From Escherichia coli (GTDB lineage: Bacteria; Pseudomonadota; Gammaproteobacteria; Enterobacterales; Enterobacteriaceae), in assembly GCF_046105845.1 (NCBI RefSeq), contig NZ_CP151004.1: a stretch of 64,000 nt of DNA. The stretch is one strand, 5' to 3'. A program made the position numbers. Shown here piece after piece: positions 26,301-29,300 of the stretch (its first letter is position 1; every line of letters begins with the position of its first letter).

Positions 26301-29300
26301 GAATAAGACTGAGGACAACGCTTGAAAAGCGCACGGACGGTCCCCTCGCCCCTCCGGGGAGAGGGTTAGGGTGAGGGGAAACACCCGCTAAAGGTTCTTT
26401 TTCGCGTTTGTCCGGCAATCGAAATAACCGGAGTTAACAATGTGTATTGGCGTTCCAGGCCAGGTGCTGGCTGTCGGTGAAGATATTCACCAGCTTGCGC
26501 AGGTAGAAGTATGTGGTATCAAGCGCGACGTGAATATCGCCCTGATTTGTGAAGGTAACCCTGCCGATCTGCTGGGCCAGTGGGTACTGGTACACGTCGG
26601 ATTTGCCATGAGCATCATCGACGAAGATGAAGCCAAAGCCACATTAGACGCGCTGCGCCAAATGGATTACGACATTACCAGCGCGTGATGATTAGCTTTC
26701 GTAGGCCTGATAAGACGCGACAGCGTCGCATCAGGCATTGTGCACGATTGCCGGATGCGGCGTGAACGCCTTATCCGGCCTGGATGGCTTGCTGCGACGA
26801 ACACCAACCCTTACCCCTGACGCTTATCTTCCGTATTCGTCTCGAAATCACTGGCGTCATGGCGCTCATGCAACTGCTCATTCAGCGGTCCGTTGGTGCG
26901 GTTAACAATACGCCCACGTTTCACCGCCGGACGTTCGCCTACTTCTTTCGCCCAGCGTTGTACATGCTTATAACTGCCCGCATCAAGAAACTCAGCGGCA
27001 TCATACACACCACCTAACACCACGTTGCCAAACCACGGCCAAATCGCCATATCTGCAATGGTGTACTCATCGCCCGCGACAAACTTATGCTGCGCCAGTT
27101 GCTTATCCAGCACATCGAGCAGGCGCTTGGCTTCCATGGTAAAGCGGTTGATGGCGTATTCAATTTTCACCGGCGCGTAATGGTAAAAGTGACCAAAACC
27201 ACCGCCGAGGAACGGCGCGGCACCCTGTAACCAGAACAGCCAGTTCAGCGTTTCGGTACGTTTCGCCAGATCCTGCGGCAGGAAGTAGCCAAATTTCTCC
27301 GCCAGATAAAGCAGAATCGATCCAGACTCAAACACGCGGATCGGCGGAGTATGGGTATGGTCGCGCAGCGCCGGGATCTTCGAGTTTGGGTTCACTTCGA
27401 CAAAGCCGCTGGAGAATTGATCGCCATCGCCAATACGAATCAGCCAGGCGTCGTACTCTGCACCAGTAACGCCCAGCGCCAGCAGCTCCTCAAGCATAAT
27501 CGTTACTTTCTGTCCGTTTGGCGTTCCCAGCGAATAGAGTTGCAATGGGTGTTTGCCCACTGGCAGCGTTTTTTCATGCGTCGGACCAGAAACCGGGCGA
27601 TTGATATTGGCGAACGCGCCGCCAGCGGATTTATCCCACGTCCAGACTTTCGCGGGCTGATAAGTATTGTCTGTCATAGTGAGTTGCCTTCTGAGTGGTA
27701 GTGTTGAAGCAGTGTAGCAGGTCACTTGCTGTACAGAATGTGAATTTTTTAACCCTTTGCGCCAGCCGCTGCGATGAGGTGTATGATTAGTCTGACCTCT
27801 GTCCGGTTAATGTCGCTGAGCAGGTAATCAGAGCACAACAATTACGCCAACTGCTTAGGTTGTATTGTTAAAGGTAAAGTGATGAGCAAAGGAACGACCA
27901 GCCAGGATGCCCCGTTCGGGACATTATTGGGCTACGCCCCAGGTGGGGTAGCAATCTACTCTTCAGATTACAGTTCTCTCGATCCGCAGGAATACGAAGA
28001 TGACGCCGTATTCCGTAGCTATATCGACGACGAATATATGGGCCACAAATGGCAATGCGTTGAATTTGCTCGCCGTTTTCTCTTTCTGAATTACGGTGTG
28101 GTCTTTACTGACGTGGGTATGGCGTGGGAGATTTTCTCGCTGCGCTTCCTGCGTGAAGTGGTTAATGACAACATCCTGCCATTGCAGGCATTTCCTAATG
28201 GCTCGCCGCGTGCACCGGTCGCGGGCGCGCTTCTTATCTGGGATAAAGGCGGTGAATTTAAAGACACCGGCCATGTCGCCATCATTACCCAATTGCATGG
28301 CAATAAAGTCCGTATTGCGGAACAGAACGTGATTCATTCCCCGTTGCCGCAAGGACAACAGTGGACGCGCGAGCTGGAGATGGTGGTCGAAAACGGCTGC
28401 TATACCCTTAAAGACACTTTTGATGACACCACCATTCTGGGCTGGATGATCCAGACGGAAGATACCGAATACAGCTTACCGCAGCCGGAAATTGCGGGCG
28501 AGCTGCTGAAAATCAGCGGAGCGCGTCTGGAAAACAAAGGCCAGTTTGACGGTAAATGGCTGGATGAAAAAGATCCGCTGCAAAACGCCTATGTGCAGGC
28601 CAACGGTCAGGTGATCAATCAGGATCCGTATCATTACTACACCATTACCGAGAGCGCCGAGCAGGAGCTGATTAAAGCCACCAACGAGCTGCACCTGATG
28701 TATCTTCACGCAACCGACAAGGTGCTGAAAGATGACAACCTGCTGGCGCTGTTCGACATTCCGAAAATCCTCTGGCCACGTTTGCGTCTCTCCTGGCAGC
28801 GTCGCCGTCACCATATGATCACCGGTCGTATGGATTTCTGCATGGATGAGCGTGGCCTGAAGGTCTACGAATACAACGCCGACTCCGCCTCCTGTCATAC
28901 CGAAGCTGGCTTGATCCTCGAACGTTGGGCGGAGCAGGGCTATAAAGGCAACGGCTTCAATCCGGCGGAAGGGCTGATTAACGAACTGGCTGGTGCCTGG
29001 AAACACAGTCGTGCACGTCCGTTTGTCCATATCATGCAGGACAAAGATATCGAGGAAAACTATCACGCGCAGTTTATGGAGCAGGCGCTGCACCAGGCGG
29101 GCTTTGAAACGCGTATCTTGCGCGGGCTGGATGAACTGGGCTGGGATGCTGCCGGGCAACTGATTGATGGGGAAGGGCGACTGGTTAACTGCGTGTGGAA
29201 AACCTGGGCGTGGGAAACCGCGTTTGATCAGATTCGTGAAGTTAGCGACCGTGAGTTTGCTGCGGTGCCGATCCGTACCGGTCATCCGCAAAATGAAGTG

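Follow-up and report, generated by a model that had tools for sequence, protein, structure and literature searches.

The hybG gene of Escherichia coli, near the 3' end of the hydrogenase-2 (hyb) operon, is bordered on both sides by short repeats in a 64,000-nucleotide (nt) stretch of contig NZ_CP151004.1 (RefSeq assembly GCF_046105845.1), hereafter the window. This arrangement raises the question of what the repeats are, how they came to lie there and whether they matter for hyb expression. The original prediction described a GC-rich palindromic motif between hybF and hybG and two repetitive extragenic palindromic (REP) sequences after hybG, and suggested that these may influence mRNA stability or differential expression at the 3' end of the operon. 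In this study, it proved very likely that hybG is flanked by two unrelated families of short interspersed repeats, a tolerated BoxC insertion before the gene and a REP doublet shared with K-12 after it. Both are members of known repeat families, and the locus of the BoxC copy is new. Beyond this locus, the BoxC motif was found directly beside genes of the DUF559 family.

A BoxC copy within a 121-nt insertion between hybF and hybG

The motif between hybF (25965-26306) and hybG (26440-26688) was present where it had been predicted. It is a G-rich 22-mer, GGGAGAGGGTTAGGGTGAGGGG, at 26357-26378 on the + strand; the window holds a single copy, with 0 expected from 100 shuffles. With its four G tracts the 22-mer is a canonical G-quadruplex motif, and it makes up the 3' two-thirds of a larger unit. 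This unit was named BoxC in the 1990s and later the potential intrastrand triplex (PIT) element and TM_ECO (Holder et al. 2015, PMC4666352); Kaplan et al. 2016 (PMC5100583) described the same motif as a G-quadruplex/hairpin (HPGQ). The TM_ECO consensus, CCCTCNCCC-N3-6-GGGNGAGGG-N3-GGGNGAGGG (PMC4666352), gave one exact match in the window, at 26343-26377, with 0 expected in shuffles. The 36-nt core was identical to TM_ECO no. 23 of K-12 (Table 1, PMC4666352). It belongs to type A mm, with TTA between the G blocks and one stem mismatch, which is the commonest type in K-12 (PMC4666352). The flanks of about 10 nt that are common to E. coli copies were also present (...CACGGACGGTC before the core and ...GGGGAAA after it). 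The insertion and its parts, all on the + strand, are as follows.

26307-26427: the 121-nt insertion; upstream of it lies the hybF stop codon (26304-26306) and downstream CCGGAGTTAACAATG (26428-26442), the Shine-Dalgarno/start region of hybG
26329-26384: region of about 56 bp conserved among E. coli BoxC copies (GCGCACGGACGGTCCCC...GGGGAAACA), from alignments
26343-26378: TM_ECO/PIT core, type A mm, from the consensus match and the identity to K-12 no. 23
26343-26351: C arm of the core
26352-26356: loop
26357-26365: G block 1
26366-26368: TTA
26369-26377: G block 2
26383-26427: 3' part of the insertion, ending in GAAATAA, which resembles GAATAA at the insertion site

The conserved region was seen by aligning the window copy with those at gntP-fimH and trmJ-iscR and with nine K-12 copies, located via the coordinates published in PMC4666352, and also in the 22 sequences of a published BoxC family set (PMC2267715 supplement 69), to which the window copy matches. 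The word palindromic in the original prediction held in part only. Over 11 nt, the C-rich arm at 26341-26351 is 91% complementary to the last G block (26369-26379), and the first G block is an alternative partner of the same arm. Under Watson-Crick folding, the C arm forms a DNA hairpin with G block 1 and an RNA hairpin with G block 2; the latter has 11 G/C base pairs and about -27.6 kcal/mol. The motif described was real, and what had been missed was its BoxC/PIT family name and the strain-specific insertion that carries it.

BoxC is a multi-copy element, and uniqueness of the motif to this locus was excluded. Among 5426 complete E. coli genomes, 5418 contained BoxC-like matches, the median number of places being 14 per genome, and all 12 copies inspected, the window's included, were intergenic. 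It has been reported that presence varies by strain at 63 TM_ECO loci (PMC4666352). The hybF-hybG copy lies outside the 23 copies of K-12, and the gene names hybF, hybG and yghU occur in none of the supplements of PMC4666352. Intra-operon copies exist in K-12 at pstA-pstB and yihS-yihR. The window copy resembles known BoxC/PIT/TM_ECO elements in its consensus, its core, its intergenic site, its copy number and its variability among strains. It differs from them in that a further 65 nt arrived together with it, 45 of them unique, and in that it lies inside an operon, directly 3' of a stop codon.

In K-12, the hybF-hybG spacer has 12 nt and consists of CCGGAGTTAATA only. The Salmonella and Citrobacter spacers have about 27-33 nt, with neither BoxC nor the 45-nt part. 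Since the K-12 spacer is 12 nt long and those of Salmonella and Citrobacter, of about 30 nt, are without BoxC, the insertion is the derived state. Its boundaries are clean, and the hybG ribosome-binding site (CCGGAG) is intact after it. The insertion was found in 19 of the 5426 genomes, among them strains N3, VCSW7 and 06-00048, with identical boundaries in all carriers, and the other 5407 (99.65%) were without it. Six insertion alleles were distinguished, with 4-5 variable sites. Over 6.4 kb of flanking sequence, the carriers were 97.3-98.2% identical to the window and the best non-carriers 98.2-98.3%. Because the boundaries are shared, only 4-5 sites vary and the carriers' flanks are no closer to the window than those of non-carriers, these comparisons point to one old event that was later shuffled by recombination. 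Over its first 80 nt or so, the insert is similar to BoxC copies elsewhere in E. coli, above all to that at gntP-fimH. The 45-nt 3' part occurs in E. coli solely at hybF-hybG, in the 19 carriers. A promoter and terminator scan of 26100-27000, which covered the insert and the hybG-yghU spacer, returned nothing. Rfam gave nothing above threshold on the insert; apart from the REP doublet, it returned a chance match to Antizyme_FSE that stayed below threshold (24 bits vs 40).

Two other polymorphic BoxC loci were compared between strains. At gntP-fimH (L003 340-640 vs L140 and L141), strains without BoxC (ST131, O157) have 13 nt, GTTCGGATTGTCG, in place of an 83-nt BoxC segment. These 13 nt and the sequence downstream of them resemble, as reverse complement, the right end of the hybF-hybG insert (GATTGTCGGCAAAG vs GATTGCCGGACAAACG). 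At trmJ-iscR (L005 360-720 vs L144 2120-2625), a BoxC segment of about 140 nt in O157:H7 occupies the slot that holds a REP cluster of about 270 nt in K-12, which amounts to a cassette swap.

The REP doublet after hybG

The two predicted REP palindromes were found at 26701-26783, within the 122-nt spacer (26689-26810) that separates hybG from the convergent yghU. The pair matched Rfam RF02564 (naRNA4/REP325), whose model derives from a REP doublet, at 26704-26780 on both strands, with 93.2 and 60.3 bits against a gathering threshold of 59.5. Its parts, and a point of variation within it, are as follows.

26701-26736 (+): z1-like REP, with GTAG at 26701-26704 and an imperfect palindrome at 26705-26718/26723-26736
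26703-26704: site where N3 and EC_J_9 carry an IS621, exactly at the first REP's foot, with AG/CT overlap
26737-26749: 13-nt linker, ATTGTGCACGATT, read from the sequence
26750-26783 (+): y-type inverted REP, with a palindrome at 26750-26763/26766-26779, then CTGG

The arms of the first palindrome are 86% complementary, and the hybG stop codon and the start of its stem are 16 nt apart, a distance that is borderline for ribosome stalling. To judge by the consensus, this unit is presumably z1 rather than z2. A REP is defined as an imperfect palindrome of 30-40 nt with GTAG at its foot, and a bacterial interspersed mosaic element (BIME) as two inverse REPs with a linker (PMC3333891). The first unit agrees with this definition in full. 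The REP head GCCKGATGCGRCGY was found 6 times in the window against 0.4 expected. Four further heads, with at most 1 mismatch, lie at 6445-6458, 15630-15643, 39851-39864 and 59058-59071. REP matches were located at no fewer than 40 places in each of 2584 E. coli records; this motif, like BoxC, is therefore not unique to the locus. The predicted RNA fold of the doublet was more stable than shuffles on both strands (z = -4.2 and -4.4).

With its palindromes of 30-40 nt, GTAG at the 5' end, inverse orientation, linker and hundreds of copies per genome, the doublet resembles the REP/BIME family. BIME-1 has a long L linker that binds integration host factor (PMC3333891), whereas the linker here has 13 nt. 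BIME-2 combines z2 and y with a short S linker in tandem, whereas the doublet is one z1-like and y pair whose first unit has the long form. Since both classes are excluded, the doublet is an atypical single BIME. The full-length covariance-model match to naRNA4/REP325 above gathering on both strands is a generic resemblance between REP doublets, and a nucleoid-associated RNA from this locus does not follow from it.

Comparison of the hyb 3' region across strains, which had been proposed as a check, was informative for both spacers: besides the insertion in 19 genomes, it revealed REP-spacer and IS621 variants. K-12 has the same doublet, one single-nucleotide polymorphism apart, and most E. coli strains have the two-REP form of the spacer, of 122 nt. 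In an O166:H15 strain the spacer is 69 nt long and contains just one REP, of type y (locus L142 669-737), and that of Citrobacter, with 50 nt, contains a different hairpin. Some 29% of the E. coli genomes covered less than 80% of a 901-nt query that spanned the insertion and the REP region. Because non-carriers with the standard doublet still cover 87%, this shortfall is mostly due to change in the REP spacer. IS621, an insertion sequence of the IS110 family with a bridge-RNA recombinase, targets REP sequences (PMC11208160, PMC1525189). Its insertion at the REP foot in N3 and EC_J_9 accords with this known preference, whereas the window has no insertion sequence at 26703/4. The loci compared were L002 3398-4676 and L143 3190-4170.

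BoxC motifs beside DUF559 genes

At least 120 stretches, belonging to widely differing phyla, contained the exact core 18-mer, GAGGGTTAGGGTGAGGGG, which nearly always followed the CCCTCNCCC arm. This wide spread agrees with Holder et al. (PMC4666352), who also reported that mobility functions were never found near TM_ECO sites. When the open reading frames (ORFs) neighbouring the motif were clustered, one family was found to adjoin it directly, namely DUF559 (PF04480; E 1e-27 to 1e-43). Two other clusters consisted of larger proteins, with members mostly 1-2 kb from the motif. In 979 kb around motif matches, all seven DUF559 ORFs abutted the motif. The usual order was the motif on the + strand, 8-60 nt, the DUF559 gene, 5-40 nt and the motif on the - strand, with the hairpins outermost.

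The association was also approached from the protein side. We collected 80 metagenome DUF559 genes by peptide patterns only, with a three-sequence alignment as the query; they are the best matches to this motif-adjacent query and represent one DUF559 subfamily. A strict double G-block motif lay within about 120 nt of 30 of the 80 genes, and its orientation was polarised, with 14 '+' vs 1 '-' upstream and 22 '-' vs 4 '+' downstream. The background for the strict motif, more than 300 nt from a DUF559 gene in these same loci, was 1 in 123 kb. A relaxed full motif was present on at least one side of 55/80 genes, and motifs in canonical orientation stood on both sides of 19/80, against a background for the relaxed motif of 4 in 116 kb at more than 350 nt from the gene. 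The cassettes in this sample were about 400-620 nt long. The two ends of one cassette co-varied relative to the ends of other cassettes, such that 0 of 5000 permutations reached the observed similarity. The inverted repeat stopped at the hairpin foot, and no target-site duplications were visible around the DUF559 cassettes. The association extends over many phyla and was seen at loci L009, L018, L026, L028, L045, L075, L076 and L151-L230 and at ycjD of K-12. A published classification (PMC3424549) groups DUF559 with Vsr and with a homing endonuclease of a group I intron. A limited literature search found no report that links DUF559 or YcjD with BoxC.

The DUF559 gene of K-12, ycjD (locus L150 408-761), adjoins the BoxC copy beside fabI, TM_ECO no. 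9, reportedly the site of the original description of box C in 1992. YcjD matched PDB 3HRL, an 'endonuclease-like protein', with E = 1e-27. The protein ends in ...SPSP, and the 3' end of the gene overlaps a degenerate hairpin, CCCTCTCCC...GAGGGGG. After this hairpin follow a partial duplicate of the ycjD 3' end of about 45 nt (GGAGACGGTGCTGGAGAATATTC...CTGAACCG; L150 240-410) and then BoxC no. 9. The duplicate suggests the remains of a second DUF559 unit. Among the inverted A/B motif pairs of K-12, four of five have the polarity of cassette ends, with 16-27 nt between the motifs, and to judge by this layout they look like internally deleted cassettes. The ycjD gene is accessory, being present in 3378 of 5426 genomes in a single copy. 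In strains without it the sapF-fabI spacer differs throughout, with no clean empty site.

Taken together, we tentatively propose that BoxC, an orphan repeat since 1992, forms the terminal inverted repeats of selfish single-gene DUF559 (Vsr-like PD-(D/E)XK) cassettes of about 400-450 bp, a possibility that we hold to be somewhat short of probable. In this proposal, solo copies would be orphaned ends made or spread by the nuclease, inverted A/B pairs would be internally deleted cassettes, and YcjD would be a resident and possibly decaying member. The association itself was observed, and a causal role of the nuclease in spreading BoxC is inferred. Because the same motif forms the ends of DUF559 cassettes, solo copies such as that at hybF-hybG are probably orphaned ends. 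The arrangement is similar to that of REPIN-RAYT/REPtron systems, in which inverted copies of a multi-copy hairpin repeat border a small nuclease gene that is present once, and doublets and singlets are scattered in intergenic DNA. However, the partner of BoxC is a Vsr-like PD-(D/E)XK protein of DUF559, whereas that of the REPtron is an HUH Y1 tyrosine transposase; the likeness is one of gene arrangement, and the window has neither gene.

BoxC-like sequences were also seen in other settings. Matches occurred in 504 plasmid records, including those of Klebsiella, Rhizobium, Sinorhizobium, Azospirillum and Aeromonas, whereas an earlier statement has the motif absent from plasmids; several 'E. 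coli plasmids' of more than 1 Mb among them look like mislabelled chromosome pieces. In metagenome-assembled genomes of Gammaproteobacteria (L077-L084), Verrucomicrobia (L113-L118) and Deltaproteobacteria (L119-L126), the core forms part of a longer repeat that is specific to each genome and whose flanks are identical over at least 40 nt. In the gammaproteobacterial genome the repeat often stands at contig ends, as is expected for high-copy elements that break assemblies.

Origin of the insertion and its part in the hyb operon

Several results weigh against the reading of the hybF-hybG copy as a tolerated, orphaned cassette end beside an ordinary REP pair. Neither a DUF559 ORF nor a second motif is present in the window, so that this BoxC is a solo copy. 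The 45-nt 3' part of the insert had no source in E. coli, in about 1 Mb of loci, in plasmids, in phages or in JGI metagenomes, and the arrival route of the 121 nt is not explained by the view of a tolerated insertion. The three polymorphic BoxC loci show three types of change, a clean insertion at hybF-hybG, the replacement of 13 nt by 83 nt and the swap with a REP cluster, and no single transposition mechanism fits all three. At ycjD, the 3' motif is degenerate and the neighbouring BoxC is in non-canonical orientation. The BoxC hairpin is no more stable than shuffles of the same composition (z = -1.0). The second REP carries CTGG in place of the conserved CTAC/GTAG tetranucleotide. Finally, every effect on hyb mRNA or expression, of BoxC and REP alike, is one that we infer.

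Other explanations of how the 121 nt arose were considered. The insert could be a complete miniature inverted-repeat transposable element (MITE), with a 114-nt body, imperfect terminal inverted repeats of 15-17 nt (GACTGAGGACAACGC, GCGTTTGTCCGGCAATC), a 6-7-bp duplication and a transposase acting in trans. Comparison with the empty site shows a clean insertion with GAATAA/GAAATAA on either side, the predicted RNA fold pairs both ends of the insert, and the anchored terminal inverted repeat score of 8 had a Monte Carlo P of 0.0007, or 0.0045 over nine end positions. However, the inverted repeat was noticed post hoc from the fold, the duplication is imperfect, and no second full-length copy was found in the 5426 E. 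coli genomes, plasmids, phages or JGI metagenomes. In an ungapped scan for flanking inverted repeats at 12 loci, none was significant, hybF-hybG included; yjdP-phnP was nominally low (5/200 shuffles), but there the arms consist of an adjacent BoxC-like block, and the apparent right repeat at gntP-fimH is also found in alleles without BoxC. The swap with a REP cluster at trmJ-iscR likewise speaks against a MITE. A MITE is therefore quite improbable here. A terminal-repeat structure for BoxC in general was rejected on the null result of the 12-locus scan and on the right repeat of gntP-fimH being ordinary flank. It is rather unlikely that BoxC acts via DNA structure alone, with no dedicated enzyme, as a triplex or a G-quadruplex/hairpin that stalls replication and leads to local rearrangements such as the hybF-hybG insert. 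The in vitro triplex and the raised variability that 56 strains show near TM_ECO loci (PMC4666352), the G-quadruplex/hairpin behaviour of the motif (PMC5100583) and the differing, untidy changes at the three polymorphic loci speak for a role of structure. Against this, in vivo footprinting gave no triplex (PMC4666352), and structure leaves unexplained both the identity of the 18-mer across phyla and the fixed inverted flanking of DUF559 genes. The structural and the nuclease explanations are compatible, since the structure could be the recognition target of the nuclease. It is hardly credible that the long spacer is ancestral and that most E. coli deleted the segment between the direct repeats GAATAA and GAAATAA. 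Short direct repeats around a hairpin segment are a classic deletion substrate, and the carriers are scattered over diverse flanking haplotypes, but 5407 of 5426 E. coli have the short form. An ancestral insert was rejected on the short spacers of Salmonella and Citrobacter, which hold no trace of BoxC or of the 45 nt.

We also considered whether the insert is functional in hyb regulation of its carriers, for example as an mRNA stabiliser or as an attenuator that lowers HybG relative to HybF. The insert is part of the operon transcript and has its G-rich strand in sense orientation, the -27.6 kcal/mol hairpin can form, and the allele is old enough to have gained several substitutions. Against this stand its lack in 99.65% of E. 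coli and in the outgroups, the scan without a promoter or terminator signal, and a hairpin stability no greater than composition predicts. Moreover, the tests of Hoyne and Maher, which PMC4666352 summarises, detected neither promoter nor terminator activity of PIT elements, nor any effect on RNA polymerase. A functional insert is thus very doubtful. As no promoter or terminator activity appears in that summary and more than 99% of strains are without the copy, the best reading is a selfish insertion that is tolerated. Being absent from 5407 of 5426 genomes, K-12, Salmonella and Citrobacter, it stands outside the built-in regulation of hyb.

The genes around the two repeats are arranged as follows.

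23294-24997: hybC, 3' end of the hydrogenase-2 operon
between hybC and hybF, in hyb operon order: hybD and hybE
25965-26306: hybF, stop codon at 26304-26306
26440-26688: hybG, stop codon at 26686-26688
3' of hybG: yghU, convergent with hybG and ending at 26811, then gss

The HybG protein of the window is identical to that of K-12. At 23300-29700 (6.4 kb), the highest identity among the 5426 genomes was about 98.2-98.3%. At 40000-46000, which covers yghO, glcC, glcD and their neighbours, it was 99.1%, and only 4584 of the 5426 genomes (all RefSeq) matched this segment. Judged by these identity ceilings, the lineage of the window, which might also be a Shigella-like relative, is poorly represented among the complete genomes. 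Elsewhere in the window, Rfam gave gathering-level matches to the small RNAs C0719 (52015-52236, - strand, 298 bits) and ES173 (9929-9992, - strand, 99 bits).

On the tolerated-insertion reading, a solo BoxC would have entered the hybF-hybG spacer within one 121-nt insertion, in a minority lineage of E. coli. Both hybF and hybG are intact, and the insert is presumably tolerated and not needed. A BoxC hairpin in hyb mRNA might at most uncouple the translation of hybF and hybG or slow 3'-to-5' decay. The REP doublet would be transcribed at the 3' end of both the hyb and the yghU transcripts. There its hairpins would most probably block 3' exonucleases and attenuate read-through, and in this way set the 3' ends and the stability of hyb and yghU mRNAs. 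In the REP work summarised in PMC12306157, REP sequences act as 3' stabilisers against exonucleases, as attenuators of read-through and, near a stop codon, in ribosome stalling. By analogy, the REP hairpins plausibly stabilise the hyb and yghU transcripts. The suggestion of an effect on mRNA stability or expression is thus consistent, for the REP pair, with these established roles and with its stable folds. For BoxC it found no such backing, since the summarised PIT tests were negative for promoter and terminator activity and the copy is absent from 5407 of 5426 genomes.

For the hyb operon, these results are of little importance. The REP doublet is an ordinary 3' end like that of K-12, and the BoxC copy is a rare allele that most strains lack. 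The insertion is useful as a natural pair of filled and empty sites for BoxC and as a marker of a minority hyb haplotype. The family-level association with DUF559 is the sole result that deserves follow-up; it offers a testable candidate both for what spreads BoxC and for what DUF559 proteins, YcjD included, may do.

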